Notes: generated by a model not told the origin, from the letters alone. Shown: positions 3,291 to 61,300, counted from the first letter of the stretch. The stretch is DNA of 64,000 bases from Microgenomates group bacterium GW2011_GWF2_46_18 (GCA_001002415.1 LCMB01000004.1:13-64012), one strand, 5' to 3'. Translations and numbers: made by a program.

Positions 3291-3392
3291 GGGAGAAAGA
3301 TGAAAAAAGAAAGACTAGCAAAACGAACAAAGGGGAGAGAGTTTTGGCGTGCCCAAAATTGAACTCAGAATAATAATTTAGTTAGGAGATAT

Positions 3393-4595: not shown

Positions 4596-4606
4596 CTACC
4601 AAGAAG

Positions 4607-4636
4607 AACATGGGGGCAGGGAACTGCCCCCATGTT
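4607..4636 (+). promoter_or_regulatory. Perfect 13-bp hairpin with GGAA tetraloop between trpB and trpS
   Basis: AACATGGGGGCAG-GGAA-CTGCCCCCATGTT. No U-tract follows, so it is not a canonical intrinsic terminator. Confidence 0.4.
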
Positions 4637-4656
4637 AAGATAATAGAGGAGGGAAT

Positions 4657-5661
4657 ATGAAAAAAAGAATTTTGTCGGGTATAACACCAAGTGGTGACCA
4701 ATTGCATATTGGCAATTATTTTGGGGCGGTAGCACCACAAATTAAACTGCAAGATACACACGAAACTTATTATTTTGTGGCGGACTTGCATGCTTTGACG
4801 ACGGTACATGACCGCATGCAGTTAGAAAAAAATATTACCGGGGTGGTTTTGGATTATTTGGCCTTGGGGCTGGATCCATCCAAATGTGTGTTTTTCCGCC
4901 AGTCGGATGTGGCTGAGCACGCGCAACTAGCGATTGTATTAGCCAACTATATTAGCTATGGCCAGATGAAGCGGATGCATGCCTACAAAGACAAACTCCA
5001 AACCGGGGCAAGTGAGGAATCAATTAACATGGGACTTTTCAATTACCCGATTCTGATGGCGGCAGATATTTTGCTCTACAAGCCTTATGGAATACCGGTC
5101 GGGGAGGATCAACGCCAACATATTGAACTGGCCCGTGATATCGCAGAATCATTTAACAAAACCTACCATACGACGACTTTCCCTTTGCCCGAACCCTTGA
5201 TTTCCAAAGAAGTGGGACGAATCGTGGGGACGGACGGGGAGAGGAAAATGAGCAAGAGTTTGGGGAATATTATCGGGATCTTTGATGACGAAAAGCTTAT
5301 CGAGAAGCAGATTATGGGTAGTTACACGGACCCTTTGAGATTAAAGGCGACGGATCCAGGGCGAGTAGAGGGGAACCCAATTTTTCTTTATCACGATTTG
5401 ATGAATGATAATAAAGAGGAAGTGGAAGAACTAAAAAAGCGTTACCGAGAGGGAACCGTTGGGGATGTGGAAGTTAAGCAAAAGTTGGTGGCGGCGCATA
5501 TGCACAAGTTTGGGCCAGCCAGAGAGAAACGCGCCGAGCTGGCGAGCAAAATGGAGCTAGTTAGGCAAATTTTATCGGAGGGAGCCAAAAAGGCAAAAGA
5601 GATTGCGCAAGTTACGCTCGCGGAAGTGTATAACACGGTTGGGGAAAACGGACTGAAATAA
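4657..5661 (+). CDS. trpS: Tryptophanyl-tRNA synthetase
   Basis: A class I 'HIGH'-type motif 'GDQLHIGNYFG' and a 'KMSKS' motif are both present. The length of 334 aa is typical. A GAGGAGGG Shine-Dalgarno lies upstream. Confidence 0.9.
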   Translation: MKKRILSGITPSGDQLHIGNYFGAVAPQIKLQDTHETYYFVADLHALTTVHDRMQLEKNITGVVLDYLALGLDPSKCVFFRQSDVAEHAQLAIVLANYISYGQMKRMHAYKDKLQTGASEESINMGLFNYPILMAADILLYKPYGIPVGEDQRQHIELARDIAESFNKTYHTTTFPLPEPLISKEVGRIVGTDGERKMSKSLGNIIGIFDDEKLIEKQIMGSYTDPLRLKATDPGRVEGNPIFLYHDLMNDNKEEVEELKKRYREGTVGDVEVKQKLVAAHMHKFGPAREKRAELASKMELVRQILSEGAKKAKEIAQVTLAEVYNTVGENGLK

Positions 5662-12841: not shown

Positions 12842-13294
12842 TTAGCGAGAATTCATGTAACGGGATTGGAGTATTGAGGTTAATTCACTATTTATGTCGT
12901 ACCCGGCCGTGATACTTCCAGAATTATTTAGCTCAGTAAAATAACGGTCGAATACTCCGGGCTGTGATTGAGACAATGTCCGAACCATATTATTGTGAGC
13001 CTCAATGATAATTCTTGCCGTTCTGGGATCTAGTCTCTTGATTTGATCGAAGAAACTAAGGCTGGGTCCTTTTCGTTCAGAATCTCTTCTACTTTGACTG
13101 GATTGAAGTAAAGATACAACCTTATCCAATTTTTCATCATCCTTCTTGACCAGTTCAAGAATACGTGTGGCGATATGGTGGAAAAATTCGCTTCGAGTAG
13201 CAACGGCATCTTTGCCTTCCTGATGTGCACGGGACAAGATATCTGGTTGTTCTGCAGAGAAGATAGTTTCAACTCTTTTACCAAACAAATTCAT
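12842..13294 (-). CDS. Hypothetical protein
   Basis: A 150-aa ORF with plausible composition that fills the gap between convergent and divergent genes. No family recognised. Confidence 0.45.
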   Translation of the reverse strand: MNLFGKRVETIFSAEQPDILSRAHQEGKDAVATRSEFFHHIATRILELVKKDDEKLDKVVSLLQSSQSRRDSERKGPSLSFFDQIKRLDPRTARIIIEAHNNMVRTLSQSQPGVFDRYFTELNNSGSITAGYDINSELTSILQSRYMNSR

Positions 13295-19233: not shown

Positions 19234-19430
19234 TAACTTAGATTGTTCGTGGAAATCATAAAGTAGGCGAGGATGATGATCAGAATAAAGACGGCGCCGA
19301 CGCTGACTCCGATCCAGCCCCGGGGTTCGTAGTTCATGATTTTTTGAACACCTTCACCAACCAAGACAAGACCAAACATGGAGGGGAGGATAAAGATCAT
19401 CATGAGAAGAGTGGGGTCGGTAAAGTTCAT
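19233..19430 (-). CDS. Small two-TM membrane protein
   Basis: 65 aa with two hydrophobic helices. Its start overlaps the fic stop in an ATGA arrangement. Confidence 0.5.
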   Translation of the reverse strand: MNFTDPTLLMMIFILPSMFGLVLVGEGVQKIMNYEPRGWIGVSVGAVFILIIILAYFMISTNNLS

Positions 19431-20476
19431 GGGTTTTTCAGTGAATATTTGGCGCCTTTGGTATTGCCGCGCCTGGTGAGTAAGCCTTTGTCGACCAGGT
19501 CACGGAGATCACGGAGGATGGTATCATCGGAAACGTCGGCTAGGAGATCGCGGGCCTCACCCATGCCCAGATGGGCGTATTTCTCTAAGTATTCAACCAA
19601 TTTGATTTGGCGGTCGGAGAGAGCAATTTGTTTGCCGCCGATGGTCTTTTTGAGGTGGAGGTCGAGAGAGAGCTTTTGGACTAGATTTTTGACGCGGGTA
19701 AACTCGGAACTAAGTCCCAGGACAAAGTATTCGAGCCAGGCTGTCAGGTTGCCCTCACTGGCTGATTGGAGGGCTTGGTAGTAGGAGGCGGGATCGGCAT
19801 CGTAGTATTCGTCGAGGCTAAAGAATTTTTTGAGTTCATAGCCTTCCAAAAAGAGGGAGAGGAGGCAGAGGGCACGAGTGGTTCGACCGTTACCGTCGGT
19901 AAAGGGGTGGATACGCACAAGCTCGTAGTGGAGGATCCCTGCGCGTAATAAGGGGTGGGTGGAGAGGCCAGCTGGGGAGGTGAGCCAGGAGAAGAATTCC
20001 CCAAGGTGATAGGGAATCTCGAGGGGGCTGGGGGGGCGAAAGGTAATTTCGCCGGTAGTGGTATTTCTAATCACGACTTTGACGGTGCGATAGTTACCGG
20101 CTTCACCGACCGGTAAGAGTTTGTCCATGGTGAGCTCGTGGAGGTGACGGAGCGAAGTTTCGGTCACGGGGGGAGCTGTATCGAGATAATCCATGACCCT
20201 TCTGTAGTTGACCACTTCTTGGACATCGCGCTCGAGCTTGGGGATACTGGCGGGGGAGGATTGGGGAGACACTAAGTGTTCGACCTCTTCCAAATTGAGG
20301 GCGTTACCTTCGAGGTGAGTGCCGTGGTGGATGGTACGGATTTTGGCTTCGCTTTGGAAGCGGCGCTCCCAGGCAGGGACCAAGGGAGCGGTAGTAATCA
20401 CTTCGCGGGCGGCGTCAACCGAGCCAACCAGGGTAAGGAGATGATTGGTAATAGTGTAGGTGGGAGAGTAGGTCAT
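19427..20476 (-). CDS. Fic-family protein (AMPylase-type) with a C-terminal wHTH-like tail
   Basis: Canonical Fic motif 'HPFTDGNGRTTR', matching HxFx(D/E)GNGRxxR. Confidence 0.85.
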   Translation of the reverse strand: MTYSPTYTITNHLLTLVGSVDAAREVITTAPLVPAWERRFQSEAKIRTIHHGTHLEGNALNLEEVEHLVSPQSSPASIPKLERDVQEVVNYRRVMDYLDTAPPVTETSLRHLHELTMDKLLPVGEAGNYRTVKVVIRNTTTGEITFRPPSPLEIPYHLGEFFSWLTSPAGLSTHPLLRAGILHYELVRIHPFTDGNGRTTRALCLLSLFLEGYELKKFFSLDEYYDADPASYYQALQSASEGNLTAWLEYFVLGLSSEFTRVKNLVQKLSLDLHLKKTIGGKQIALSDRQIKLVEYLEKYAHLGMGEARDLLADVSDDTILRDLRDLVDKGLLTRRGNTKGAKYSLKNP

Positions 20477-35712: not shown

Positions 35713-36357
35713 ATGTCACCAGAGATACCATCGACGAACAGAACAATGTTGGAGAGGATGCTGGGGAGCGGATGGGAAGTGAAAGAAGGAGATCCTAGCT
35801 TGTTGGTTAGGGTTGTTAGGGGGGGATTAGTTCACTGTGTTGATGGGCGGAAGGTGGATCAATTTCTGGTACCACAAAAAATTGTACGAGGCCCTAAGAT
35901 TCAGGGTGGAGCTGAGGGGGTAGCTTTGCTGTTGGCGAAAGCTCAGGGTGTTTCGGAAGTGGATGAAAGTTGGTTTAGAAAAGCATGCCAGGTGATTAAA
36001 AACTCTGGTTTTGTGCCGGGTGTACATGATTTTGATCACTTACACTGTGGTCATTTTAACCTGGCAAGTCAAGGAAAATTTGAGGGAATGCCAAGATTCA
36101 CAATAACGGCAGGGGACATGAGCCGGATTGTAGGGGAGTTTGGAGGGAGTCAAGTTCATTTAGCAGGTCAACACGAGGAGTACGTGATGCGAGTTAATTG
36201 GGATCCGAACATGACTTTAATTCCGAACAAGGAAGCTTTTAATCTGGATGCATGGTATGCAAATGTGATTGGGATTAATCAGGAGACTCTGCTTGATAAT
36301 GCGGCTAAGACGGTAATGGGACTTAGTTCTGTTCGGACGGTTGAAGTTTTTGGCTAG
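35713..36357 (+). CDS. Hypothetical protein
   Basis: A 214-aa ORF packed tightly in the operon. No family recognised. Confidence 0.5.
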   Translation: MSPEIPSTNRTMLERMLGSGWEVKEGDPSLLVRVVRGGLVHCVDGRKVDQFLVPQKIVRGPKIQGGAEGVALLLAKAQGVSEVDESWFRKACQVIKNSGFVPGVHDFDHLHCGHFNLASQGKFEGMPRFTITAGDMSRIVGEFGGSQVHLAGQHEEYVMRVNWDPNMTLIPNKEAFNLDAWYANVIGINQETLLDNAAKTVMGLSSVRTVEVFG

Positions 36358-42350: not shown

Positions 42351-42853
42351 AACAGTATCAGGAAGTGTTGTTCATCGGGAGATTTCAACCATTACATTTG
42401 GGGCATTTGGATTGCATGGAGCATGCCCTTAGTACGAGTGAGCGGGTGACGGTGGTGATTGGGAGTATCAACCTAGTGGATGAACTGGCTAACCCGTGGA
42501 CGTATGCCCAGAGACGACAGATGTGGGAAAGGGTGATTGTTGAGCGAGGGTGGGGAGAGAGAGTCAGAATAGTCGGGGTCAACGATTACATGGATGATGA
42601 TGAAAAATGGGCGAAAGAGATCCTGGTACAGGCGCCAGAAGCAGAAGCCGTCTATGGACACAATCAGTGGACTAATGATACTTTGGCTAAATATGGAGGA
42701 TTGGTAGTTGAGGAGCCAGGATTACTAAGAAGAGAGGAATTGGAGGGGACCCTGATTAGAGCCATAATGAGAGAGGGAAAGGATGGATGGGAAGAGCGGG
42801 TACCTACCGAGTTACATGAGTTATTGCGCGGATGGAGTTTGAATCAAGCGTAG
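42347..42853 (+). CDS. Nicotinamide-nucleotide adenylyltransferase (archaeal/NadM-like cytidylyltransferase fold)
   Basis: N-terminal 'GRFQPLHLGH', an (H/T)xGH nucleotidyltransferase motif. 168 aa. Confidence 0.7.
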   Translation: MKQYQEVLFIGRFQPLHLGHLDCMEHALSTSERVTVVIGSINLVDELANPWTYAQRRQMWERVIVERGWGERVRIVGVNDYMDDDEKWAKEILVQAPEAEAVYGHNQWTNDTLAKYGGLVVEEPGLLRREELEGTLIRAIMREGKDGWEERVPTELHELLRGWSLNQA

Positions 42854-43225
42854 TTTGAGGAGGAGGGGAGGCAGAAGAATCATGGTGATACTGCCTTGAA
42901 TGAAGCTAGTAGTGAAGGAGAGGAGGAGAGTAAAGAGGAGGTAAAAGTAGGACTGGCGACTAGTAATTTTGTAGAAGTGAACAAAGGAGTAGTAGACCAG
43001 GAGATAGGCGATGGTGATCTGGGGGTCAAAACTCAAAGTAAGACTATTGATATCAATGTTCCCGCTAAAGGCGGAGATAAAGCCGGCAATGACGGCAGCG
43101 GCTAGGTTAAGGAGAATGGCGAGAGCGATAATGGCAAGGATGCGGAAAAATCCGCCAAAGCGGAATTTAAGGGCGGGGAAACGACGAGATTTGGGAGTAG
43201 CTTGATCGTAGGTGACATCGGGCAT
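42821..43225 (-). CDS. Small multi-pass membrane protein immediately downstream of the giant gene
   Basis: 134 aa with 3-4 hydrophobic helices. It lies 79 nt downstream of the giant gene's stop on the same strand. Its 3' end overlaps the convergent NMNAT gene by 33 nt. Confidence 0.5.
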   Translation of the reverse strand: MPDVTYDQATPKSRRFPALKFRFGGFFRILAIIALAILLNLAAAVIAGFISAFSGNIDINSLTLSFDPQITIAYLLVYYSFVHFYKITSRQSYFYLLFTLLLSFTTSFIQGSITMILLPPLLLKLRLIQTPSAQ

Positions 43226-43304: not shown

Positions 43305-46300
43305 TTAATCCAGATAGGAGGTTTGGGAAGTTTGGGTTTCGATGAATTGCTGAATTGGTTCGGCAAGAGATTTTCCGAGAGCGGTCAATTGTTGAATAAA
43401 ATCGGGTGATGTAGTTGTTGAGATATTTTTGAAGCTACGTTCAACAGCACTGATGGTTTCGTTGACTAGGTTCTGCATGAACCAAGGTAGAGTGTTTTTG
43501 GGAGGTGGGTTGTGGTAAGAGGCATAGGCATCTTCTAGTAGTCGAGAACTACCTTCCTCTGTAGTGGGAAAGATTTGGCCAAGCTCTGCTTCCATTAAGA
43601 TAAGTTGTTTTGATGAGGGCTTATTGAGAGGGGAAGGAAGAATTCCACTTCGTTGATATTTTTCAAAACCATAGATCGATTTAACACGATAGTAAGCCCA
43701 GATTAGAATTAGTTTACGATCTAGAGGGTTTTGAATTTCGGGGAGGAGAAAGCCGTTGTAGTCGTCAGCAAGGATTGTTTCAATGAGGCTGGGGTCGTCG
43801 ATAAAATCATTGATGTTTTGAAGTAACTGCTTTTCGTTGATAAGTGATTTGTATCGTTGATATGTCATTAAAGGGATACTAAGGCGATTGTAGGCTTTGA
43901 AAGTTTTTTCTAGATTGGTGAGGCTACTTAGACTATTAACACGGAACTCGACATTATTTACGTATTTTTGGGTGAAAATATCGGGTACTCCTGGACGTTC
44001 ACGAATAAACATACCTCGCGAAATGGAATAATTAATTGTTAGTTCTTTGCCTGAAACAGTGACCGTATTGGCCAATTCCTTTTCTTCTACGTCTTGAATC
44101 CCTCCTTGGCCGTTGAGGGGGGTAGCAGCATAACCAGTACCAAGAAGGGAGTTTTGAAGAAGTATCGAGTTTTCATCTAAGCTAATACCTTTTTCGCCAG
44201 ATATGGTGATATGGATACCTCTTTCGCCAATCCATTGGAGAATTTGGGGATGGAGAGAGAGAAAGCCAAGTTGTTCAAGTTCGGAAATTTCCCAGATGAG
44301 CAGGCGATAGTCGGCAACTGGGTAATTAGCGAATTCGTGAGTACCATCAAGCCCCTTGCCGACTTGGAGGGAGTCGAGATATTTAGTATCTTGTTGGTAT
44401 TCCTGGACGGCCTGCTTTATTTGCTGGTAGTAGGTTAAGGTCAGCTTGTCCATTGCGGACTCCATGAGGTCTAATGATGCGGAGCCAGTGGTTTTATGTT
44501 GATTTTGGAGCCTCTTTAGTTCGATGTAATCCTCGAGGCTAAAGAGACCCGTACGTTGGAGACCGTTATTGACAACTTCGATTTCTGAACCGAGACTGAC
44601 ACGATAATTAAGAGGTGGAGAGAAGTTGTCTTCGGTTAGTTCTCTAAGTTGTTGAGTTATGTGATCGTTGACTCGACCACAAAGATTAATGAATTCAATA
44701 GGATTAGTAAAGGGCTTACCCTTTAAAATTTGTTGATAGATACGCCAACTCATGAGACCGAGAGGAGTGCGAGTTCTAGAGTCAACTGTGTTTAAATGGA
44801 TCCAGTTCATAAATTGGCCAAATCTGGAACCGTTTTCGTCTGGATCAGATGAGTTGAAAAGTTTATTGAGCGTCGATTGCTTAATATCTAATAAACGATA
44901 TTGATGGGAAAGTAATTGTTCACGGAAGTTAAGTAGCTGAGCAATTTCATCTTGATTGAGAGGATTATCGGGCAGATAGACCGGAGACTGAGAAATTAAG
45001 TGAATTTCTTCGGGGGTTAAGTTAACCAGCTCCTGAGCAAAGTAATTCCAATCGAGAGAAAGAAGAAAATCACGGGTGGTCGGGGACTGAGAGATGATGG
45101 CCCAGTATCTCCGAATGGTGGGGTCGGAGATATGGGTGATGACATTATCGTTAATATCTCCTTCAAAGAGATTCCAAAGTTGAGTGGCTGGCCAGGAAAG
45201 AGATGGGGTACGTTTGGTTAGTATGAGAGCGATAATTTGATCTGGATTAAGGTTTTGATAGTAAGTCAAAAAATCAGAGTAGGCGGTGCCATGGGGAAAG
45301 ACATTCTCGCTAGCAAATGAGTTATGATAGTAAAATGTTCGCCAGAATTGTTGGACGGTAGGGGGAAGTAAGTCAAAAATGTTACGATAACGATTCATGA
45401 GTTCGAAAGGAAAGAATTGCCGGGCAGCGTAGGTCTTGTCGCTAGTGGTTAGGTCGGAGATGATGAGAGCTTTGATGGCACTGTCGGAGTCCTCTTGAAG
45501 AAAACGTTGTTGGTAGTATTGGTAACCATTAACTTGTTCTTCGATTAGGTATTGTTTAATCCCTGATGAATTGATAATGCTGGTCCAGAACTTTACTTGT
45601 TCGGGGGGAAGAAAAGTGAGGAACTCTTCGGTAGAAAAATTTTTCTCTCCCATGTGGGAATCAAAAAGTTTATAGGCAGCTTCAATTTGGTTATGATCAA
45701 TCATATAGCCTGCTAGATGGGCAACAGCAGAAATTGGGGAAGTTGGGATGGAACTGGAATGATATTGAGAAACAATTTCGAGAGCTTGGGGGATTGATTC
45801 TAAATCTACGAGGTTTACTTTGGAAACGGTGTTGTTGGATAAGAGGGAGGCGAGGTTTGACCAATCGAATGTAGTACCCAGGTGATCGACAATTATTCCC
45901 AAGTAATCAATATCCTGGAGGATAGCTGGGGATTGATTAAAAAAGTCAAAGACAAGTTGGGCTTGGGAAAATATTTGTTCAGGCCTATCCTGATATTTAT
46001 GGACTACCAGGCCAAGAACATTGGTAATTAGGGTGGTGTCTGTGTCATGATCAAGAATGAATTGACCGTAGGATTGATTATAAGATGTAAGGGTGAGAAG
46101 GGTAAGGGGGTTGGCCACAAAATTTATAGTCCGGATAATTGTATCTATTTGGTTGTTGTTGAGTTTGGGGAAAAGTGCTTGGAGATATTGTTTGATCTCC
46201 GGATCAAATTTATCTATACTTGAGACTGGCTGGGGAAGTCTGGCTAATAAATTTTCTAAAGCGATAGTGGTGGTAAGAGGTAAATTCAAGGGGATTTGAG

Positions 46301-49300
46301 CAGGATTTAATTGATATTTTTGGTAAATGTTGGCAAGAATAACATGATTAATTTCTAGTAGAGATTCGGGGGAATTGGAGTATTCACTAAAAAGGGCTAT
46401 TTTTGACTCGATCTTGTTCAAATCATCAGTGTCTTTGAAAAATAGGGAAAATTCTGATTGTTGGGAGGAGATAATCTGGGAAATTGCCAATGAATGGGAG
46501 TCTTTGATAATAGCTTCGATGATGAGATTCTGAGTGAGAGGACTAAAAGAAGTTAATAAATTGGTGGAGAGGGTAGTAAGGTTCAAGGCGAGTTGGATAA
46601 TTTGCCGTTGAGTGTATTTTTTCTCAATCAATTCAGGAACATTAACTTCAAACTCAGTTTCAAGTTTTCTGGCGGCTTCGAGAGTTTCAGTGGCTAGGGT
46701 AGGATCTTGGGCAGATAACTCTAGAACGCTCAATGTATTTGACGAATTTTTGAGTGATTCAAACCAAGCCGTAAATTGTTCGTCGTTATCCATGGTGGCC
46801 CAAACCTTGAGAGCTTGGGGGTAAATCATAAATCGACTAAGATTGGGCTCTTCTTTGAGTAAATTAACAATCCAAAAAATTCGATCGGGAGCAAAATTAT
46901 TGAGATTGATGATTTTGAGAGTTTCGAGAAGATAAACTTGTTTTTCGAATGAGTCCTTGGCAAGAGGAAGGTTGTTGGCCTGTTGGGTAATTGTATCGAG
47001 GAAATTGAGGGTATTGTCTACATTATCATTTAGAGTGAGAACTCGCAGAGTTTCGACAACCCTATCATCGAGATAGTCAGCTGGTTTATTGGCAGGATTA
47101 GTATTTCCTAGGTTATAGATAGCATTGAAAATGCTTAGAGTACGATTGTGTTGGGGGGAAGTCAGATTTTGGAGGCGGTGAAGATAGGTGGTAAGGTCGG
47201 AAGACTTGAGGCCTGCTACTAAAACTTCTCCGGAATAGTGAGATCTAAAACGTTTATTGAAAGTTCGACTGGTTTTAACCAGCTCATCGATATAAAGCGA
47301 GAGATTGGAGAAGTGATCGGTAGCGTTAGCTTGATTGGTGAGACTGTTTAGTGCAGGAAACAGAAAAGCGTCATCGATAACTTTCGTCCAGATATTTTTT
47401 GTAGGAATTGTGCGCAGAATTTGTTCAAGGGTGCTACTATTTGCTACTAAAAGATCGAGAGTTGATTGGGTGGGTTTTTCTCCGATAAGATTAGTGAGAT
47501 CCCAGGTATCTGTACTACCAGTATCGGCGAGAATTTGACTAAGTTTAATCAGTGGGGGAATGGTGGTAGATAGATCTAAATCTGGATTTGATAGGGCCTT
47601 AAATAATTGACTAACTCCGTACGCGTTTTTTCCTAAGACGATAGAGGCAAGTTGAGAAGAATAAGGAGATATTTTGGTAAAATCGATGCCGGAATAACCA
47701 TTTAGTAATTCATTAAGGAGACCCTGAGTGTCAATGGTTGGTTGGACTGTTTGAATGGTGTTGGCTAAGGTAACTACATCAATAAGAGCGGTAATAATAT
47801 TACTGTCGTTAAATGAATAGTTGGTTAAATATTTTTGAGGAGAGCGAGGGCTCACGAGAATCCGAATGAGCTTGTCTCCGTTTGGTTTGGCTTTAAGAGT
47901 ATTAATGACTTCATCTTTTTGTTCAGCAGTGAGGACGTCACCCAAGCGGTTTTTCCATTGGTTAAGTTTATAGTTTTGGTAGCGATCACTCATCCAAGTG
48001 TGAGCACGGGTTGAAAGCGAAGGAGCAGTGGGGGATTGGGGAGAAGAGTTATCTGCTGGTTGGATTGTCCTAATGGGAGCGGAGTTTAAGAATTTTGTAC
48101 CAAGGTTTTTACCGAAGTCTTTAAGATTAGAGAAGTCGGGGAAGGCAGAAATACCAATGGTGCGACCGAGGAGTGTGTCGAGGGCGGTTTGGGGAGTGAC
48201 TTGGGAGGTAATTTGATCAAACTTGATTCTTTGTTTTATTTTTAACAAAACACTGTTTATCTCATCCTGTAATTGAGTATTGATTATGGTTAATGAACCG
48301 TCAGTGAGGGTATTGGAAATTGGGAGGGCATGACTTTTTCCAACAACAGCAAGGATATTCTTATCAGGATTTGCATCTCTGACTTGTTTAATTCTTGACT
48401 GATAGAAATTTTCCCTGGCTAGTGCATCAAGTTTGACAAAATTGAGAACCAAAGTGGAGATTTCTTTTGCCTCATCAATCTCGGTTGAAGCGAATATGCT
48501 ATCAAAAACAGCGTTAGTTAATTGATTGGCATATCCAGAATCTCCTAAGAAATAGTTTGTATATAACTCTAAGATTTTTCTCCTGGATTCTTCTAGGGGG
48601 AGATTATTAGCCAGATCATTTTGGAGAATGTGTATACCAAACATGAATGCAAAATCTGCTCGGGAGATATCAATTTTGGAATCTAACCATAATTTGTATC
48701 TGTCTGATATTTCGTTATTTAAAATAATTAATTCTTTGTTCGTGTTGATTGCATGCTCTTGAGCTGTTTGCATAAATCTTTTTTCAGAGCTAGCTTGAGA
48801 ATATGGATTTCCCTTGATGGATTCGAATTCAACAACTATGATTTGAGACTGATCTAACCCATTTTTGAAGTCCAATTCTGATTTTGGATCAAGGGAATTT
48901 TTGACGTGTTGTTCGCCAACAATTATTGTTTTGTTTGAATTAATTATTAGTGGCAAGTCTGTACCTGATGATGTATCAATTGCGTCGATAGTACGGTCGA
49001 GGGAGGTGTTGAGAGCGGTTTGGGGGGTGGTTTCGGAAATGGGGAGGGGTTGGTATTGGGTGAAGTTACTGGTGAGTTTAGGAAGAATTGGTTGAGGCGG
49101 TACTGTTAAGTAGTTAAGGGGATGACCAAGGATTTTGTCGTTAAGTATGAGTTGACCGGCGAGACCTGAGTTTTGGGGATCAATCCCAAAATTGATATTG
49201 ACGAGGGCGGCGTGGGCGCCGTAGAGGCTAGAAAGATACTCGGAACTGGGATGAATGGTCCCACTAATATTATCAATAGTCTCGCTTTTGCCAGGCAGGA

Positions 49301-52300
49301 CCATTTCTTCAAGAAAATGCCCGGTTTCGTGGGCCAAGGTTTTGAGTTGCAAGGGGAGGGGGAGAGTCGAAAATTCTGGGTGAAGGAAAATGTAAGAGCG
49401 GGGAATAGAGTCATTGGGGGTGAAACCATATTCAGTTCCGTTATCATCTGTAATGCGCATGGTTCCGTCAGCATAGAAGTTGGCAAGTGAAGAGCTTGCG
49501 TCATTGATATTTTTGTTGAAGCTATCGGGACTAACGAGATTATGATATTGTTCGTCGAGGGGATTGGTGACGATTTCTACCCCATGTTCACGCAGAGTGG
49601 TTTTGATGAGGGTCAGTGCGTCTTCGAGAGAAGGACTTTGATAGAGTTTGGCAAGAAGGTTGAGTGGGTCAGGTGTTTGATTAAGGGCTGCAGAAATATC
49701 AATAGCTGGTTGATAGTGGGAGAGAGCACTCCCCGTACGGTAAAAGATCAGCTCTGAATTGTCGTCGAGGGGAACAACATCCTGACTAAGAGTAGAAGAG
49801 ACTTGGGAAAGAGCAGACGAAGAGAAGGGGAAGGTCGAATTAGGAGAACGGAATACGGAGATTAGTCGCTCGATAAGGTTGTTGAGCCAGTTGGTGTCTT
49901 CGGGATTGGCAATGATACCGGCGGTGCGGCCCAGGAAGGAGTCGAGGGCGGTTTGGGGGGTGGTTTGGGTATCGATCGAAATATCTCTGTTGACTATTCT
50001 AACGTTAATTTCTGGAATGATGTCACTAATGTCAATAATTTTTCCGTTCTGATGTGCACTATAAAGTTCCATAAATCGTGATTCGAAACCACCTAGTTTT
50101 GCTAATTGTCTGATTATTTCCGCTTTTTGCTCGTCTGTGGCGTCTCGATTATATGTAGGTTCCAGAGTTGTATTGAGGGTTCGAACAAAATCGTTTCCGA
50201 AGATAGATACTAAATCCTTGAATACTGAATAATCTAGCTCTGTTTTTGCGACAAATAATCGTTTGAAGGCTTCTAGGGCAGACATGCTGCTTCTATCCCG
50301 TATGGTCTCAATCATAGATAACATAAAGGCATTATCTAGTTCATACGGAGTTGCAAACGTGATGCCAGAATTATGCATGACGTATGCTGCAAATAGATCA
50401 GCCATTGCCTCTTCGCCTGCTCCTTTTAACTCTCTATTATTTACATATTTCATAAATCCACTTTGTATTAAATCGTATGTATTTTTGCGGGGATTAGGGT
50501 TAAATTGAATTACTTTTTTGGTGATAAAATGTGAAATTTCATGAATAATTATTGCTTGTGCTTGTTGGTCAAGGAGGCCCATGTCGGTAGGTAAATTAAT
50601 TTCAATAGTTGTACCATATGCATCTGTTTCTCCACCACCAATTCTCTTCTCGACATATTTTTGTCTATTTCGATCGAGAAATTGTGGTGTTAGATCAGCA
50701 AATATGAACTGATTGGGAAATGGCATTAGAGCTGGATCTATGCCAAGACTAATTAGGGCCTCTTGGGTTTTTGAGAGTATTTCTTGAAGAATCAGCTGAT
50801 CGTTAGGCGTTAATTTTCTCAATAAATGATCGCCGAAATCATTATTTAAATATTTTAGGTATTTGTTAAAAATTGAGTTTTTTCGGCTTTGGAAATATGC
50901 CCCTTGATCTTTTGGAGTCATTGTTGCGGAAAACTTGGTCTTTAATCGAATGTTATTTGGCAAATCAGATGATTCTCCCAGGTACTTATCAATATCACGT
51001 AGATCAGCTTGATATTGCTCGATTTCGTTACTAGTTTTATCTAGTGCCATTAAAATATATTCTGAATCGACATTCTGGTTTTTTAATAATTCAATCGTGT
51101 CGTTATAGAAGGTAATAAGTTTAGATAGATTATCGCCCACGACTCGAAATCTAAGGAAGTAATCGAAGTGCTGTATTTTTCTATTGCTTGCAATATTTTC
51201 AAGACTTTCTATTGTTTCCCATGTACGTTTTAATTTGGGGAGAACGTTTGTAAGAGAGTCGGAATAAGAGAGATTCTTAATAGTAACGCCGATACTATAA
51301 GTTCCTAGATCGATGGATTCTAGATAGGAAATTAATTGATCTAATTCATGAATAAATTCTTCGATATTAGATTTTTGAGATAGTGAAGCGCGGATTTCCT
51401 CCAAATGTTCTTCTCTTATATCTAAAGAGTTCAATCTGGCCATAAAGTTATCAAATATTGGTGATGATGCCATAATTTCATTAGTGAGTGGAGTTGGCGT
51501 GTTGTCTGCCGGTCGGATTTTACTAAAATTATATTGAATGGTATGTTGGGGGAATGAATCGTTGTATTTAGTTGGGACGGCTACATCAATGACATTGTAC
51601 CCAGTTTGCTCTATTGATCGAATATTTATTTGTTTGTTGCGAGGCAGTTGATCAAATGGTGTAAAAATATACTCAATGTCGGTTTTCCCCTGTTTTAAGG
51701 CTGTCATGACACGATTGGCTCCGTCGAAGGTATAAACTTTGCCGTTGTAAAGGGTAATTTCGATTGGATCGATGTGAGTTCCTTGAGAAAGAAGTTCAGT
51801 TAAGGCTGCGACTGCGTCCGGAAAGTATCCAAATTCGTGGGGATGAAGTTGGGAGATGCTAATAGTTCCGGTGGGTAGGAGAGTAATAGTTTCGGGGAGG
51901 TCGGTGGGGATGGAGGGGGCGGTAATGGAAGGAGAAACTAATTGATCAACTTGAGAGGTGATAACCAGACCGGCTTTTAGGCCGATGTCAGAGAGTTGGG
52001 TGGTGAGAGTAGGGAGTGGATTAGTGCTATCTTGGGGGGTGGTTTCGGAAATGGGGAAGGGAGATAGGGAAGCGAGTCGACGAGCGAGATTTGGCCAGTG
52101 GGCAAGGCGCACGGATTGGAGAAGCAGGAGAGTAGATTCTTGAGAGTAACCTAAATCACGAATGGTTTTGTAGGCATTAAGGCCATTGTTGACCAAATTG
52201 TATTGAGTTGGGTTAATTATCTTCGTGATCGGGCCTGAGGATGAAGGAATGGTGATCGATTGTCGGCTGTAATAGTATTTCCGGAATGAATCGATCGTAG

Positions 52301-55300
52301 CTTGGTGGAGGAGAAGGGCAAATAGACTTGTTTGTGGAGTTTTGGTGATTATGTTGGGATTGGAACTGACATTTTGTTCCAGCTGTGAAAGAATAGATGA
52401 TTCTGGAAAGACATTTTCCATTGTTTTGTCATAGAGAAAATCATAGCCTCCGTTGATGCGACTTAAGTAATAGAACATAGATTCGAAAGCAGTTGGCCAG
52501 TCTGGATTAGTTTCGCCAGCAATTTGGGCAAGTAATTCGTTGGCTATTTGATATTCTCCTGATTTGCGTTGGAGGAATATATATTCGGCGATCAAATTTT
52601 CGAGTCTAGTGGTTACTTCTGGGAGGAAGTTAAAATTGGCGTCACCTTCCTCGACTGATAGATAATCAAAGAGTGGTCCCCACGTTTTCCCTTTCAGGAG
52701 AGTTAATGTAACAGTGATTTGATTGTTGGTGGTAGTGATAATTCCGGTATAATCTTCTTGATAAAAGTCAAGAAATTTTTGAAAATATTGTAAATTTCCT
52801 GGTGTGAAGGGGAAAGTAGTTGTAAGGGTGTCGAATGATGAAGTTTCGGAAAAAGGTGATTGGGCAAGTTGAATAATTTCGGCCTCAATTGATTTTAGTC
52901 GTGACTGCTCGATAGGAGATAATTGATTGGTGCGAAGAGTGGGAGTAAGAGTGCTGAACTGAGCGTGCTGTGATTCGTGTTTGAGCACGTCCACGGTATT
53001 GTAAGTCTCCATATTAAGTACGGAAACACTATATCGTCCTATGCGTGCGTGAAACCCTCCGTACGATTCGCTAATATCTGTAAGTCGGGGGTTCAGAATA
53101 TTGAATTGTTTGGCATAAGCCTTGGCAAAATCTTCGGAATTAGAACTGTGGAGAGTAAGTTTGCCGTAGGAAGTAATAACTTTTATTTCGCCTTGAGGTA
53201 AGAAGCCAAAGATATATTTCCAGAGTAATTTGGGGTCTGGGTAGGTTTTTAGTAGTGAGACAACGTCGATTTGATCGTTGTAGAGAGCGTTGATGCCATA
53301 GAGAAAATTATTAATTTCGAAGGTAGATAGATTGGTTTCTTTGGCTTTGATTAGAGTTAAGTTGAGAAGTTCGTTGCGGGAGATTGTGGGTTGCTGGGAA
53401 ATAATTAGATTAATGTTTTGATAAAGTGATTGGAGTTGTTGATAACGGGTTGATAGATTCTCTTTGAATTGGGTCAAGGCAGCTTTTTTCTCAGTATTAT
53501 TGAGAAGAGAAATATTAGACAGTTGAGAAGATAAATCGTTGGGATCATTGTTTTGAATCGTCCAGGAGAGGATGAACTCTTCTTGATTGGAGGGGGGATT
53601 AGCGGGAAATTGAATGGTGAGGTTACCAAAAGTGAGAACATCACCGTATTTTAGGCCGATGTACAGATCATCAGTATTTACTGAAGCGAATTCGGAAAGT
53701 GGCTGAGTAACTCCATTGATCGTAATAATTGTTTGAGAAGGAGTGCCAGGGGGGATGGAGAGAATGGTAGCGGGAACGGTTGGTGATAGATAATCATAGT
53801 CTCCACCAGATAAAATAAAATCGGAAAATGTTTGCAGGAAAAGGTTTGATTGTTTGGAGTTGGTAGTGTTAAATTCATTACCAGATAGATAGGTGTTTCT
53901 ATGGAGGGGTGAAGTAGTGGTTTGGAAAGATACTGTAGCGGGGTTGACTTGGGGAGTGTTGATTCTTTCCCAGCTCGAAAAAGGAGTGTCGGGATTGAGG
54001 GGGATAGAGTAAGCGACAAGGTGATATTTGTTGAGAATATCGCGGATTTTCGAAGCCTGTTGAGAAATGATGTCTCCATCGGGGGATCCAAGAGCTTCTA
54101 GTTCTTCAAGAAGTTTATGCCGTTCGTTTTGATCATATTCAATAAAGGCTGGTGTTTCTGGGGTGCGGGCGATGAGGGTGGTTGTGTTGGGGCCAACGAC
54201 AATAATTGAGTTACAACTAAAGTCTTTCTCAGGACTACCTTTTTGGAGAAGGAAGGTAAGGTCGGTGGTGGAAGGTAAATCGCCGATACGATTGAGAAGT
54301 TCTGGGTCGATGTTCTGTCCGCGAGATTCAATTGCATTTTGTTCGAGGGTACCAACTGGGTGGGAATGAATCCTGGTAAGAGGTTGTTCTCCGGGAATGA
54401 AGAGCTCAACTCCAGAGGAATATTGGCCTTCCCGGTAGATACCATGCCGTTGGCTTTGGTCGAGCATTAATAGAGAAGAGTCACGTTGGAGGATAATATT
54501 TGATCCTTCCTGATCAAAAGAGGCGGAGTGAAGCTGAAGCTCGAGGAGTTTAAGGCTGAGAATACTAGGATTGGAGAGTTGGGTTGGTAGGTCTTTGGAA
54601 TGGACTTTCCCTGAGAGAATATTGGCAAATTCTTCATCGATTGAGGTATCGGTAATTTCGACTAGTTCTTCTTGGCTGACGTCTACTGCTGGATTAAGGA
54701 AACGACCTTGTTCCAAATACGTCATAATGGCTGCGTGGTTACGTTCAATGATTACTTCTCCCCACGCCGTTTCTTCTAGAATCTGATTGAATCTGGTAAC
54801 CATTACATCGCCCAAGTTCATGCCAGCTTGAAGAGCTTGATTAGAAAGAGTTGTGAGAGGATTAGTGGCAGTGGGAGCGGGAGAAAGTGGGATGGTTTTT
54901 ATTTTTTCGGCATTAATAGTTTCGGCTGAGGTGATTGCGTCTTCTAGTTTGTTACTATCGAAAAAGTTGGCGACTGGATCAGTGGGATCAATGTCTTCTA
55001 GGTCAATTCCTGCTTTTTGAAGTCGGTTTAACCTGTCAATTAGACGAGGATAGTCTTGAGGAATTGGTTCTGCGTATTGGGTAATTTGGTTTTGAAGGTA
55101 GGTTAACCAGCGGTCGGTGTTGGGAGTAGAAGCGACGGCGTGGGGATTGATAGGGGGCGATGGGGGTTGCGCTTGAGGAGTAATGGGTGTTTGGGGAGGG
55201 GTGGGGGAGTTGGGTGATTGACGGGTGGTATTCTCCCATGGCATCTTGGTGATATTGTTCTGATTTAAATACCCTCGTACGGAGCCGGCAATACTTTTAT

Positions 55301-58300
55301 CTCCGAAAATAAAAGTAAGAGTTTTTTGAGCTTCTTCAAGTGAGTCGGTAACCAATGAGTTCAAGTTATATTCGGAAATGTAGGCTCGGTATTCCTTAAC
55401 TTCAATGGACAATTCTGGGTGGAGACGATAATCGAGGGCGTGAACGGTCTCATGAGCGAGTTTACCCAGTTCTGTTGGATCGAGACTTGACGGATTTTTG
55501 ACATATACTGTATTTGTCCCCCAAGCGTCGTCGTAAAAAGCGTTAGTTGCAGGAATATCATTTTTGAATTGATCGGGAATTTCGTCGAAAGATTTGATTG
55601 GGATGTTATGTTGGGCTGCTACACTGCGGATAGTGTCAAGATATTTTTGAGGGTTAGTGCGTCTCAATTCTGGTGCGAGTAATTTGGTGTCGGCCAAAAT
55701 TTTTGTTTGATCTTCAAGTAATTTATTTATTAATTTCTGAGTGTCTTGGATGGGGTAGCCCGTAAGAAATTGTGAAATTTGGCTTTCGTAAGGTAATTCG
55801 GTATTTATGGCGGGGGTGGTTGGGGTGGGGTAGGTGGTATAAGTAGCGTTGGTGATTAGTTTGACTCGCTCGGTGGGGAGGGGGAGATCGGCAATTTGGG
55901 CAACTGCCTCATCGGTGGTAAGCGTGCCGGACTGAAGATCGGAGAGCGTGCGATTGAGTGCATGCCAGGAAGAGGTGGGAAGGACAAATGAAGTGAGGTA
56001 AGTACCCAAATTAAACTTGCCGGTAGCAAGGTCAACACCGCGGGGGAAGGTGAGAGTTGTGGGGTTGAATAATTGTTCTTGGCGGGCGGCGAAGGCAAGG
56101 TTATTGGTAGTCCGAGAGAGGTTGGGCAGATTAGCGGTAAGATTTCCAGAATTAAATGAGGGGAGGCGGAGGGAAGAAAAGCTATCGGAGAGATTGCGGA
56201 AGAATTGGGAAAGACGAGAACCAATGGAAGAGGGGGTTGTTGGAGTTAGAGCACGGGGAGCGGCAGCGGCGGGGGGAGCGGTAGTTGCTAAGTATTGGGA
56301 GGTAGCGGCGCGGTACTGGGCGAGACTGGAAGGATGGGTGGAGTTACTTTGGGCAAAAGCCATAAGCTGGTCAGCAGGGCCAAAACTGGCAGCAGGAGTA
56401 AGACGCTTGGTGGGACGAGCGAGTTCGGCCAGGAAATCACCTAAGGGGGGGAGGGGTTGGTCAATATGGAGAGCTTGACGGAGAAGCTTTTGATTAGAGT
56501 CGGAGAGGTTTAGGGTCCGAGTGATTTGATCGGCGTAGGAGAGGATTTGCCGATTACTAGCATCTGCCCGACGATAAATTTCAGCGTACAGCCTGTCTCC
56601 CTCAAGTGGTTCTCGAGAGATACTACTATTCATGAGTCCATTAAATTGACTAGCTTTGGAGTTGAGTTGGGTACGGAGAGCAGCGAGTTTTTTGGTATCT
56701 TGAGGGGAGAGACCCAGGGATTTACCGATATTATCGAGGGAGTCGAGGGCTTGCTCGGGAGCCCGAGCTAAATTACGAGTCAAGTCATCGAGACGCATAT
56801 TGCTTAAGTGTTGATAGTGATTCTTCTGGAAGTAATCGGTCATGACATTGTTGGGGGTAAGATCGGTAGCGGTGGAGCGAAGATAAAGATCAAATTCTTG
56901 GGCAAAGGCTTGATCGGCCTCACTGAGACGAGAGAGATTATTGGGGTCGGCAACTAAGCGGTTACGACGAATGAGCTGTTCCATTTGTTCGGACGTAGGC
57001 GCCGAACTTCCCGTTCCGTCGACAAAATTTGACCAGCGGATTTTGCCATGATTAGCGGTGACTTTGAGGTCAACGGCTCGTTCGCGGCCGAGATAACCAA
57101 TCAAGAGATCGTTGGGTTTGACATTGGGATCGTTACCAGCAAGAATTTTCTGAATGCTATCATTCCAGGCTTTGCCATCATCTAATTTGATCCGGCCGGC
57201 GTAGTCGATTTTCCCATCTTTGACGGAGTATTGTAGATATTCTTCGATCATTTCGCCGTTGGGTTTTTGGGCGTATTGGGCAACGATTACCGTTTTGTAG
57301 GGGACACCTTCTTTTTCGGCCGCCTTGACAATGGCCTGCAAATCGGCCGCCATGTCGGCGTTACTACTGGGGAAACCAATGGCGGAAGCTTGGTGGGCAT
57401 AGTTGAGTTTGCGATTGGTGGCAATACTTTTTGCGAGAAAATCACGATCAGCATTATTGACGAATTTGGTCGGAGCGGGGAGAGTGGCGATAGAAGTTAC
57501 ATTGACTCCCAGAAGGTGAGCGGCAGTATCGGGAGTAGCGTCAAAGCCGCGGAGAGTGTGACCAGCATTTTGCATCTCACGGTAGAGATCCACAACCTGC
57601 ATTTGGGATTGATGGGGGGAGATCTCGATCTGACTTAGTTTGGGGAGGCGAGAGGGATCGATCAAATCAGCTCCTTCTAAAAGGTATGGGCGATAGGCTT
57701 CGAGCATGTCGGGTCCATGACCGTAGAAAGTGATGAGTTGGGAGGTAGAGCTTAAACGTTCGCCGGTAGTACTTCTGGCTTTGCGGAGGACCAGGTCGTT
57801 GCCTTCTTGGGAAAAATCGGTGCCAACCCGACGGTTGAGCTGGACCCAGTCGTCTTGAAGATTGGTTTTGCGGAAGGAAAGGTTGGTGAGTAAGTTATTT
57901 TCTCTCCGAGCGAGATTGGTATTACTACTAGCTTTGGAGAGGATACCGTCAAGCTCACCGATGGCGGTTTCGCTTGTTTTGGGATCCTGCAGTTTGGCAG
58001 CAAGGCTTGAGAGTTCCTCGCCTAGCTGGGTGTTGGTACTATTGGTTTTACGCAGGGATTGATCGATAATTTCGGCAAGAGAGTTGGCGTGGGTGAGTGT
58101 GTCTTTTGGCACGACCTGATTGGGGCCAACGGTGCGGAAGAGAGAGGATTCATTATAACCTTCTTTGAGTTCGGTGAGGCGGGCGTCAATGAGTTTTTTG
58201 TGAGTTCCTCCCTCGCTAATGTCAGTAAATATTGAGACGGCGTCACGGCCGGTTTTGAGACCACCCAAGAGTTTGGGATCGGTGACTTGACTTAGGGCTT

Positions 58301-61300
58301 TGCCGCTGCCACTAATGGCAAAATTACCCATGATGTCATCACCGATTTCGTCGGGGATCACTAGGAAGGAACCATGCTTTCCCTGGGTGATTTGTTGCAT
58401 GATTTGGCCGTTTTGAGTAGGGTTGCCACGGCCACGAAGACGATCAAACCAAGAAGCTGAGGGGTCGGTATTGCCCCCCAAACGAGTCCAAGTGGCGGAG
58501 GGGCGGTCACTAACGAACACAAGGCGGGAAGAGTTGGGGTTGGTGGTACTTGCGTTAAGTAAGCGGAGAGTCTCTTCGGGGGAGAGAGCTTGTGCGCTTT
58601 TGAGATCAAAGTGAGGAGAGGTTAAATCAACCGAGAGAAAACCCCTTTGATTATCAAGATAGATCACGTTAGCGTTTTGGCCGGAGTAGAATTTGCGGCC
58701 GCTATCGGAAAGTACCTGCGTATTCACAAAATCCTGAGCTTCGGTAGCGGATTTGAAGAGGGAGAGGCTGCGAGGTTCTTTAACCGACAGGATGCGGGTA
58801 ACGGCATCAGTTTTGCCGGCGAGAGAGGTGCCATCAAGTTTTTTGAGCTGAGAGATGACATCGCTACTTAGGAGGGTATCGACTTGTTCGGGGTAGAGAT
58901 GATAGCCGACTGCACCTTCAAAATCGTCGAGCAGTTTGTTAAATGATTCGACTTGTTGAAGACGGATGGGGTCGGTAATATTGGTGGAGCTTAAACGATA
59001 CATCTCTCCACTACTGCGAGAGCGAGCGGTAGAATCCCAGGTGCGTTCAACGCGAGAGAGATTGTCTTGGGAACTGAGGCGGACACGTTTGACTTCTTTT
59101 TGATCAAAGGCGTCGGAAAGGGAGGTGGTGGAAGGAGTAGTTTTGGGAGGGGGAGTGATATTGGCAAGTTTAGAAGCGGGGGGAAGGCCACCGCTCGTAT
59201 TGTGAAGAATGGTGGCGGAGAGATTGGCGGCTTGTGCGGTTGAGAGCCCAGATTCTTGGAGGCGAGCTATGAGATTACTTTCGGTCACGACTTCTTGAGG
59301 TTTGAGAAAAGTGCTGGGCTCAAGGGGATTGAGACTGCGGGTAATGGGCATGATCAAAGGAGAGCGGGAGGTTTCGAGGGCGAGCGTTAGTTGGCGGGTT
59401 AGGCTTTCGGAGAGATTGTTGTTACCGGCGAGAGTTTCGATGGCACTACGGGAAAAAGGACCATTAGAGACAAAGCTACTTGAGAGATCAGTAAAGGTTT
59501 TGACAAAGGGAGTAATAGTATCGTCAGTTAAAGTGATACCGGATTTTTCGGCGAAATCGAGGATATGGAGAATGGATTTGAGATCGTCAGGGGGGAGCCC
59601 GTGAGTTGCACTTAGATCAAGGATAAGATTGGCTTGAGCGGTGTCGGAAAGGGCGACACCAGCCTGGAGATCTTTGAGCACGGGAGTTTGGAGACTGTCG
59701 CTACTTTTTAAAGGATTGATCAGACTAGTGGGGCTGTTTTGGATAACTTTTTGGCTAAGAGTAGCGGCAAATTCTTCCGGGGTACCTTTGAAACCAGCGG
59801 TAAGAGCAGAGTTGAACAAATCGGGAGTATTTTTGGCGAGAATGTTGTCGGCAGTAAGACCGGCATCTTTGACTATTTTGGTAATAATGGTGTCGTTGTT
59901 TTTGATCCCGATGGTACTAGCTAGGGTTCCTACTCCTTGAGCAACCCATTTGGCGGCGTAGGTGTTACTGATACCGGAGAGTCCGAGTCCAGTACCAATC
60001 TGAGCGACACCGGTCACTAGTTTGCTGGTTAAGAAACGAGAGCCGGCGGAGATGCCAGTGTCAGCAAAGACTTGAGTGAGACCACGGCCGATCGATTTTT
60101 CGATTGCACCACCCCAGACTTTGGGGGCGGAGAGAGTTTTGCTTACACCAAGTAAAATTTTTTCACCCACGGTATCGGTGGCAGTTTTGCCGGCGACTTT
60201 GATGGCACTGCTTCTAGCTAAAGCAGAGCCTTTGGTGAAGAGTGATTCAGTCCCGAGAGTGAGAAAATCTCCCACGGTGAAGCTAATTTCGATGCCGAAG
60301 TTACTAGTAGCTAAAAGTTTTTCACCAAAGGAGGCATCATCATTGGCCCAAGTGGAGGCGTAGCCGTAGAAAGCATTGTCGATGGGAGCTCCCGCGGGGA
60401 TATCGGCGCCGGAGCGGAAACCCATGGGGACGTAGCGTTCCGTCCAGGCTCCGGTAAAGAGAGAGAGGCCCGCGAGTGTTTTGTAAATAAAGCTACCTCC
60501 GACATTGGGAGAGCTTCCGGAGTTAATATCGTCGAGAGTATTGACTCCGTAGAGAACTTTGGCGTCACCGCTAATGGTTTCGAGGGTGTTGAGAATAAAA
60601 TTTTCCGGGAGTTCCATTTTGATCTCGGGAACGGCCATGGCATTATTGACTAAGCCATGAGCAATGTCGGCTTGGATACTGGAAGCTTGATAGTAACGGG
60701 GGTCAATGGCGGCAGTGATTGGAGCGACAATGTGGTCAACCAGAAAATTACCAAGCGGAATGGCATTAATGACAGGATTTGTCCGGAGATCATGGGCGAT
60801 TAAACCTTCTTGGAATTGAGGTAAGAAGGCGGCGGAGATAGGAGTAACACATTTGTTGTTGACACACTGAAGATCTTGATAACATGAGCGTTTTTCGCCG
60901 GTGTATGTCAGATTGGATTGTTCGTCTTCGAAACAGGGTTCGTTGATCCAAGAAGTTTCAATGTCATTAACTTTGTCGATCAAAGTGGATTGATAATTAG
61001 TATTTTTGATGTGGCAACTCATCCCAGGGGGGCAGTCTTTGGCGCCGGAGTCGAGAGCGTAGCCGTTACTACTGGAGAGATCACTATTGCTACAGTAACC
61101 GCCGGATTCAGCGCAGGATTTGCCGGGGAGAGTACTAGCCATTTGGGGGTTGTCACAATAGCTTGGGTCGGGAGCGGCTTGGATACTACTAACCCCACTA
61201 TCCCAACAGATCCAACAGCTGCCGTTTTGTTTGTAGGTGGAGTAGGACTGATTACACCCAGTGGCGGCAAGAGAAGGGGTAGTGGAAATGTAAGTAGCGA

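Follow-up and report, generated by a model that had tools for sequence, protein, structure and literature searches.

Giant exported arrays of modules, swapped between relatives, are familiar from the MARTX and polymorphic toxins, whose peptidase domains either release effectors or are effectors themselves. A second precedent is the polyvalent proteins of phages and conjugative elements, in which one to five zincin-like metallopeptidase domains stand amid domains of ParB-like and JAB-like type and many others that are uncharacterised (Iyer et al., 2017; PMC5512222). Those metallopeptidase domains are related to lethal factor by HHpred, carry a variable insert between their two helices, and have been suggested to function in polyprotein processing or, alternatively, as effectors; the zincin core itself is defined as a strand, a helix bearing HExxH and a conserved Glu on the following helix (PMC5512222). 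Very large membrane-associated multi-enzyme proteins (the “Archaeovorins”) have also been described in ultra-small bacteria of the Omnitrophota, with processing or attack on prey proposed for their peptidases (bioRxiv 10.1101/2023.11.21.568195). Here we analyze a giant gene, with four HExxH motifs in its product, on a 64,000-nucleotide stretch of DNA (“the window”) from the uncultured Candidate Phyla Radiation (CPR) bacterium Microgenomates group bacterium GW2011_GWF2_46_18 (GCA_001002415.1, LCMB01000004.1:13-64012). CPR bacteria are believed to grow attached to other microbial cells; how they manipulate these hosts is largely obscure, and their largest proteins are annotated simply as “hypothetical.”

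The gene runs off the edge of the window: its true start lies 47 codons beyond it, giving a full-length protein of 6,944 amino acids, and in the ORF (open reading frame) listing of the window the sole start given for it is the internal ATG at 63305. Residues are numbered here from the codon at 63998 (window residue 1), so that adding 47 gives the full-length number. We consider it rather probable that the product is a membrane-anchored modular protein with four distinct, unannotated families of HExxH-plus-Glu zinc-metallopeptidase-like modules (M1 to M4, from N- to C-terminus), serving as effectors and/or as cutters of a polyprotein. Since three of these modules keep HExxH in distant relatives, and the fourth does so more tentatively, M1–M4 are probably real enzymes rather than chance motifs, with M2 the more tentative case. 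Assignment to the zincin-like metallopeptidases of gluzincin type (MEROPS clan MA) has good support in the case of M3, M4 and M1, and for M2 it is plausible; because no match to a peptidase family was significant, this assignment rests on motif, conservation and predicted topology.

The original prediction of four in-frame HExxH motifs in one polypeptide was borne out at exact coordinates within a single minus-strand ORF (Table 1). Its further claim, that four such motifs are notable even in some 6,900 residues, can now be quantified: the composition of the giant protein (His 1.5%, Glu 5.0%) leads one to expect 0.079 HExxH, the Poisson probability of finding at least four is 1.5e-6, and none of 5,000 shuffled sequences contained three or more. 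The motif HxxEH is absent from the giant protein. The view that the motifs are merely chance occurrences could appeal to the great length of the protein and to M2, which is backed by one homologue; with about 0.08 motifs expected, and HExxH invariant across dozens of distant M1, M3 and M4 homologues, it is already refuted for these three modules and has very little left to recommend it overall.

Conservation in homologues, one of the checks suggested with the prediction, came out positive: HExxH is kept in all 51 aligned M3 sequences, in seven of seven for M4, in all three protein homologues and 18 of 18 metagenomic loci for M1, and in the one homologue of M2. The motifs had also been described as lying in mutually dissimilar contexts, and this holds. 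Self-BLAST found no internal repeats in the giant protein, so the motifs are not copies of each other, and profile–profile comparisons of M1 with M4, M4 with M3 and M1 with M3 gave probabilities of 6–25%, with the alignments limited to the strand and HExxH helix. A common origin of the four modules was considered and set aside on the basis of these low values; the modules are therefore best treated as separate families sharing a generic zincin core. The metzincin signature (HExxHxxGxxH/D with a Met-turn) does not apply: Gly is absent from position +3 after the second His in all four motifs, and no conserved His or Asp stands at +6.

Module M3 is the best documented of the four. An exhaustive search of residues 3987–4991 of the giant protein against 1.84 billion representative proteins split this stretch into three independent modules, and for M3 yielded about 60 homologues, nearly all of them stand-alone proteins of 300–340 amino acids; HExxH was present in 57 of the 60 M3-type matches listed. 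In an alignment of 51 sequences (roughly 19–29% identical to the window module) the H, E and H of the motif are the sole invariant columns, and Glu E4530 (E186 in the alignment), at +40 from the second His, is retained by 90% or more of the sequences. The AlphaFold2 model built from this alignment (predicted local distance difference test score, pLDDT, 93; predicted template modelling score, pTM, 0.93) has strands at 111–114 and 121–126, the HExxH helix at 134–147, a beta-hairpin region and then a helix (185–196) carrying the conserved Glu. With the M3 profile, HExxH and also the EE..A..FA segment align to an M61 aminopeptidase, at E 0.03, and to Zmp1 (PPEP-1), a Pro-Pro endopeptidase, at E 0.5. 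Both values are below significance, as is the E of 0.0046 at which one of the 51 family members meets the Pfam model of anthrax lethal factor (ATLF). Foldseek found no significant fold neighbour of M3 in the PDB (the best were aureolysin, ERAP1 and LTA4H, at E of at least 0.3 and TM-scores of about 0.2); against the viral models of BFVD, the weak top matches include M61, “lethal factor,” IrrE-like, SprT-like and M34 proteins, with E of at least 0.04. The genes for stand-alone M3 proteins lie on short or uninformative contigs, on which toxin–antitoxin genes were all that was seen nearby.

For M4 there are six homologues: P0003 (1,671 amino acids), P0004 (3,004), P0083 (1,448), P0075, P0081 and the fragment P0051. 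Across the seven aligned sequences (25–53% identical to the window module) T..HExGH..E and P..E....LYG are invariant, which includes Glu E4920 at +26 from the second His as well as E4897 at +3, the last residue of the extended motif HExGHxxE. The segment around E4920, EYLSSLYG, resembles EAISDIFG of thermolysin. In the AlphaFold model the core (residues ~40–230) has pLDDT values of 80–97 with disordered tails, and four strands are followed by the HExxH helix (156–175), a hairpin and a helix (196–211) that begins at the conserved Glu; M3 and M4 thus have the same predicted order of elements, namely sheet, HExxH helix, hairpin and Glu helix. The sequence profile of M4 retrieved no peptidase from the PDB. 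In the PDB fold search with the M4 model anthrax lethal factor took ranks 1, 3, 4 and 5, yet with E of at least 0.2, which is not significant.

M1 was approached from two sides. A word-index search found a single relative, P0001 (2,041 amino acids), which is 42% identical to the giant protein over 154 residues around the motif, and local profile searches added P0003 and P0025. Metagenomes were then scanned with a pattern for the downstream segment alone ([SP][IP]Ex[KQR]EY[RYE][AS]Y), and each of the 18 loci so retrieved (consensus LEHELIHAxQ.....MPIE..EYEAY) has its HExxH in register, 12 residues upstream of the Glu-rich segment. Because the loci were retrieved by the downstream motif alone, this test of HExxH is not circular; the positions that never vary are the H, E and H of the motif, E2866, E2869 and two Tyr, of which the Glu pair belonged to the retrieval pattern. 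The majority of the 18 loci encode stand-alone ORFs of 230–300 amino acids, and no stand-alone modules lay together in the loci inspected for this. One locus, L009 (Ga0233437_1000873), from another metagenome, is an open frame of more than 2,176 amino acids with two M1-type modules (residues 985–1190 and 1707–1888), and multiple copies of M1 in one giant protein therefore occur elsewhere too. No significant Pfam or PDB match to M1 was obtained; individual members show weak similarity, at E 0.02–0.04, to M78/IrrE and to a “putative metallopeptidase” family.

M2 has a single detectable homologue, P0003, with 23% identity over 220 residues ending just past the motif (pairwise E 8e-8), where VLTHETQHA corresponds to VLKHESQHA in the giant protein, so that HE[ST]QHA is kept. 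A candidate Glu helix lies far downstream of HESQH, beyond a variable insert. The second HExxH of P0083 looked M2-like by eye; its BLAST similarity was not significant and it was dropped as evidence.

Taken by module, then, the third zinc ligand that the original prediction suggested looking for downstream has a conserved Glu as candidate in M3 (+40), M4 (+26) and M1 (+13/+16), and in M2 a tentative one, the NE[LV]LA segment. The original prediction also pointed to hydrophobic residues before the His, as in zincin helices. The M3 and M4 models place ahead of the active-site helix a beta-sheet, the edge strand of which binds substrate in zincins, HExxH on that alpha-helix and the conserved Glu on the next; in M1 (TVYVK) and M2 (YSVSVL) comparable hydrophobic stretches stand ahead of the motif at the level of sequence. 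As to the fold itself, both models have the strand or sheet, HExxH helix and Glu helix of a zincin, which together with the lack of any significant fold match makes them suggestive. Weak matches are enriched in zinc peptidases and none reaches significance (M61 at E 0.03, PPEP-1 at E 0.5, PDB matches by Foldseek at E of at least 0.2). Pfam and NCBIfam returned nothing credible for the whole giant protein or for pieces of 260–360 residues around the motifs, none of M1–M4 has a match in Pfam, NCBIfam or PHROGs, and relaxing the Pfam threshold to E 10 for the four motif segments brought up unrelated weak noise, with the MPTase-PolyVal and M34 models unmatched. A scan of a collection of genome contigs found no relatives of residues 2700–5000.

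By analogy with known enzymes, each of M1–M4 would have a beta-strand leading into the helix that carries HExxH, the two His of which would bind zinc while its Glu would act as the general base; the third zinc ligand would come from the conserved Glu of the following helix. Zinc binding and peptidase activity are inferred from this arrangement. It is also conceivable that HExxH marks the metal sites of other enzymes, or is purely structural, and that the modules are not proteases at all. As whole domains, neither M3 nor M4 resembles any PDB fold closely (TM-score at most 0.25), which, like the lack of significant similarity to any peptidase family, would fit such a view; nevertheless a strand, an HExxH helix and a Glu helix are the defining arrangement of zincins and are present in both models, and zinc peptidases keep recurring among the weak top matches (aureolysin, ERAP1, LTA4H, lethal factor, M61, IrrE, SprT). 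We regard this alternative as distinctly improbable.

The modules are evolutionarily mobile: M1 (~240 amino acids) and M3 (~320) occur as stand-alone proteins, and M1, M2 and M4 are reordered in other large proteins of like architecture. Modules outside residues 3987–4991 were mapped by BLAST against the large hits, which showed that P0003 carries M4, M1 and M2, in that order, behind an anchor and Cys-rich head of its own, and that P0004 combines M4 with a JAMM-like module and a DnaJ domain (residues 687–746, just after hydrophobic segments). P0001 has a GDSL lipase at residues 21–151 and a C-terminal Ser/Thr kinase at 1736–2009. Since DnaJ, lipase and kinase domains are found in relatives of the same layout, recognisable enzymes have been swapped into the same scaffold.

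A feature of that layout is the distribution of its cysteines. The full-length giant protein begins with a signal-anchor helix (KILLIIAVLGAATIPLAL) ahead of a Cys-rich region (Table 1), beyond which just two Cys occur in the remaining ~5,850 residues; Cys makes up 0.75% of the neighbouring proteins and 0.7% of the stand-alone M3 homologues. The same partition is found in P0001, P0003, P0004 and P0083. Near-total exclusion of Cys is typical of exported or translocated proteins, such as the exported proteins of Gram-positive bacteria, and its presence in all these relatives favours a Cys-free enzyme array that is exported or translocated. From its N-terminus the giant protein would comprise the signal anchor, a Cys-rich region of ~1,050 residues, a segment of weak hydrophobicity and independent modules that total ~5,800 residues with hardly any Cys. 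We can imagine, as a doubtful extension, that the Cys-rich head is extracellular and, with a membrane-inserting segment, delivers the shuffled array into the host cell of an episymbiont; the cargo would comprise at least four new zinc-protease families together with JAMM-like and ParB-like modules (in relatives also a kinase, a J-domain and a lipase), and after delivery the proteases would cut host targets or release other modules. If true, this would make the giant protein a CPR counterpart of both the MARTX toxins and the polyvalent proteins of phages.

The preferred reading of the giant protein, as an anchored array of metallopeptidase-like modules, has to be weighed against several observations that count against it. 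The modules have no significant match to known peptidase families in Pfam, NCBIfam, PHROGs, PDB sequences or Foldseek searches; the spacing of 13–16 residues between the second His and the Glu of M1 is shorter than in thermolysin; and M2 rests on one homologue, no further relatives having turned up in the metagenome scan. No mobile-element, phage, plasmid or secretion-system genes were recognised among the genes flanking the giant gene. Stand-alone M3 homologues have no N-terminal hydrophobic signal and a normal Cys content, a hint of a cytoplasmic location, and together with the DnaJ and kinase domains of the relatives these signal-less proteins suggest a cytoplasmic setting, in either the producer or the host.

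Followed through for the producer cell, this last point would make the giant protein a receptor or scaffold, with the Cys-rich region as an extracellular sensor and the C-terminal array as intracellular proteases of housekeeping or regulatory function. DnaJ and Ser/Thr kinase domains, C-terminal in relatives of the same layout, would suit it (the DnaJ domain of P0004 following hydrophobic segments, as noted), as would the housekeeping genes on both flanks of the giant gene. It is hard to reconcile with two Cys in ~5,850 residues, far below the content of neighbouring proteins and of stand-alone M3 homologues, or with the same exclusion in four relatives, and we think it unlikely.

A conserved linker raises another question, that of the substrate. 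The motif (S/T)x(T/Q)(T/V)TPQ(T/D)... recurs in four copies between modules (for example ISETTPQTALDSFLGRTAGI), reading TPQTAL in three of the four and continuing as D..LGRT.GI in two of these; its copies may mark sites of processing or serve as docking peptides. On the assumption that the modules are chiefly autoproteases, they would cut the giant precursor at these linkers and so free the separate modules, an account that differs from the preferred one in substrate only. The position of the motif directly after M2, M3, M4 and the module that follows M4 speaks for it, as does an LGRT.GI.A.P-like segment in P0083, and there is precedent in the autoproteolytic release proposed for polyvalent metallopeptidase domains and for effectors of the Photorhabdus virulence cassette (PMC5512222). 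Nevertheless, four unrelated proteases exceed what self-cleavage needs, the stand-alone M1 and M3 proteins have nothing to release, and P0003 and P0004 lack TPQ-type linkers; as the main function of the modules, autoprocessing seems improbable to us. In the reading we prefer, M1–M4 would be effector proteases acting on distinct substrates and/or would cut the polyprotein at the conserved linkers, by analogy with polyvalent and multi-effector proteins.

Table 1. Positions of the giant open reading frame, its modules, motifs and linkers in the window (residues are window residues)
Feature	Position	Strand	Residues	Motif or remark
Giant ORF	43305..64000	-		6,897 codons inside the window plus stop at 43305-43307; frame open at the window edge
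Cys-rich N-terminal region	60849..63998	-	1-1050	50 Cys
M1	55194..55841	-	2720-2935	HETVH
M1 motif HETVH	55440-55454	-	2849
M1 conserved Glu E2866/E2869	55392-55403	-		IEvKEYrAY; +13/+16 from second His
JAMM-like module	53964..54743	-	3086-3345	FDQEG...IHSHP...29 residues...PSTTD (E...HSHP...STTD)
M2	52044..53591	-	3470-3985	HESQH
M2 motif HESQH	52965-52979	-	3674
M2 candidate Glu helix NELLAQI	52521-52541	-		tentative NE[LV]LA; NEVLAML in P0003
Linker copy 1	51972-52064	-		directly after M2
DGANR module	51444..52001	-	4000-4185	nearly invariant LHPHE.GY and DGANR
M3	49971..50966	-	4345-4676	HEISH
M3 motif HEISH	50529-50543	-	4486
M3 conserved Glu E4530	50409-50411	-	4530	within GEEAMADLFA
Linker copy 2	49893-49985	-		directly after M3
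M4	49029..49823	-	4726-4990	HETGH, extended HExGHxxE
M4 motif HETGH	49317-49331	-	4890
M4 conserved Glu E4920	49239-49241	-	4920	within PssEYlSSLYG
Linker copy 3	48960-49052	-		directly after M4
Linker copy 4	48129-48221	-		directly after the module following M4

Two further modules of the array are worth describing. The JAMM-like module is 41% identical to the corresponding module of P0004 and has no Pfam or PDB match; judging by its E...HSHP...STTD pattern, a metal motif of JAMM/MPN-like type, it may be a fifth metalloprotease-type domain. Homologues of the DGANR module are numerous and occur in small proteins as well as in other giants, which reach 6,855 amino acids; other giants with this module also have several HExxH motifs of their own. 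No Pfam model covers the DGANR module, and the only similarities found for it, weak ones to ParB (E 0.14) and sulfiredoxin (E 0.45), are such that it is possibly of the ParB/sulfiredoxin type.

The giant protein corresponds to public “hypothetical protein” entries from Candidatus Collierbacteria, identical over the shared part. Its gene is flanked on one side by bacterial housekeeping genes (RadA, Prs, Rho, an M23/LysM protein, S1 and MnmA) and on the other by Obg, Band_7 and an MGMT-like gene. Directly downstream on the same strand, at a distance of 80 bp, lies a 134-amino-acid ORF (42821-43225, minus strand) with several hydrophobic helices, which public assemblies annotate as a gene and for which Pfam gives no match. 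No immunity gene was recognised; this small multi-pass membrane ORF could be an accessory or immunity-like partner. Apart from nested shorter ORFs, nearly all other long ORFs of the window are on the plus strand; the minus strand carries the giant gene together with two ORFs, at 19427-20476 and 12842-13294. Guanine–cytosine (GC) skew of the plus strand is strongly positive across the window (1-64000; +0.18 to +0.41 in 2-kb windows), and because it stays positive over the 20 kb whose only gene is on the minus strand, it tracks the DNA strand and not the coding strand. One plus-strand ORF (35713-36357) encodes a 214-amino-acid protein matching the Pfam family CDCA (cadmium carbonic anhydrase repeat) at E 3.5e-20; this family is known chiefly from diatoms and is hence unexpected in a CPR genome. 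Searches for tRNA genes and Rfam families gave no match within the window.

Taken together, these results define four protease-like domain families that Pfam, NCBIfam and PHROGs lack, two of which are also found on their own (M3 in about 60 representatives, M1 in most of the 18 metagenomic loci), and they show modules being shuffled among giants of a common layout: anchor, Cys-rich head and Cys-free enzyme array. No new catalytic principle is implied; if active, the modules would extend the known HExxH-plus-Glu zinc peptidases. Being small and expressible, they are convenient targets for biochemistry, and the choice between an effector array and a self-processing polyprotein provides a hypothesis for a class of CPR proteins.

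How, then, does the giant protein compare with known systems? With thermolysin-type and M1/M61 peptidases it shares HExxH with a Glu 20–40 residues downstream, and these families supply the top weak fold and profile matches for M3; it has no significant similarity to that group and the overall folds do not superpose (TM-score ~0.2). Another comparison is with M34 (anthrax lethal factor and PPEP-1/Zmp1), in which HExxH is likewise followed by a Glu in a helix of E(E)xxAxxFA type, and which supplies the strongest of the weak matches, by sequence for M3 (PPEP-1, and ATLF for one member) and by fold for M4. These matches are, however, below significance, with TM-scores of at most 0.24, and the modules of the giant protein are larger and have other peripheral elements.

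At the level of whole proteins, the Archaeovorins differ in being tens of thousands of residues long, in belonging to another phylum and in having recognisable Pfam domains (glycosyl hydrolases, C39, S8), of which the giant protein has none. The MARTX and polymorphic toxins resemble it as giant proteins with arrays of modules swapped between relatives; in contrast to them, Pfam and NCBIfam searches detected in it neither RTX or other glycine-rich repeats nor a cysteine protease domain, nor any delivery repeats such as Rhs/YD, and no secretion-system genes were detected. From the polyvalent proteins it is set apart by the lack of a Pfam match to MPTase-PolyVal or to the “large polyvalent protein-associated domain,” by its chromosomal location in a CPR bacterium among housekeeping neighbours, with no phage or conjugation context, and by an N-terminal membrane anchor and Cys-rich region that polyvalent proteins do not have. 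Yet it is these proteins that come closest to it: several unrelated enzyme-like modules, including four with HExxH, a JAMM-like and a ParB-like one, are joined in one polypeptide, the insert between HExxH and Glu is variable, lethal factor is the nearest, if weak, structural match, and there are many uncharacterised companion domains. In architecture, then, its closest analogue is to be found among the polyvalent or multi-effector proteins with multiple metallopeptidases.

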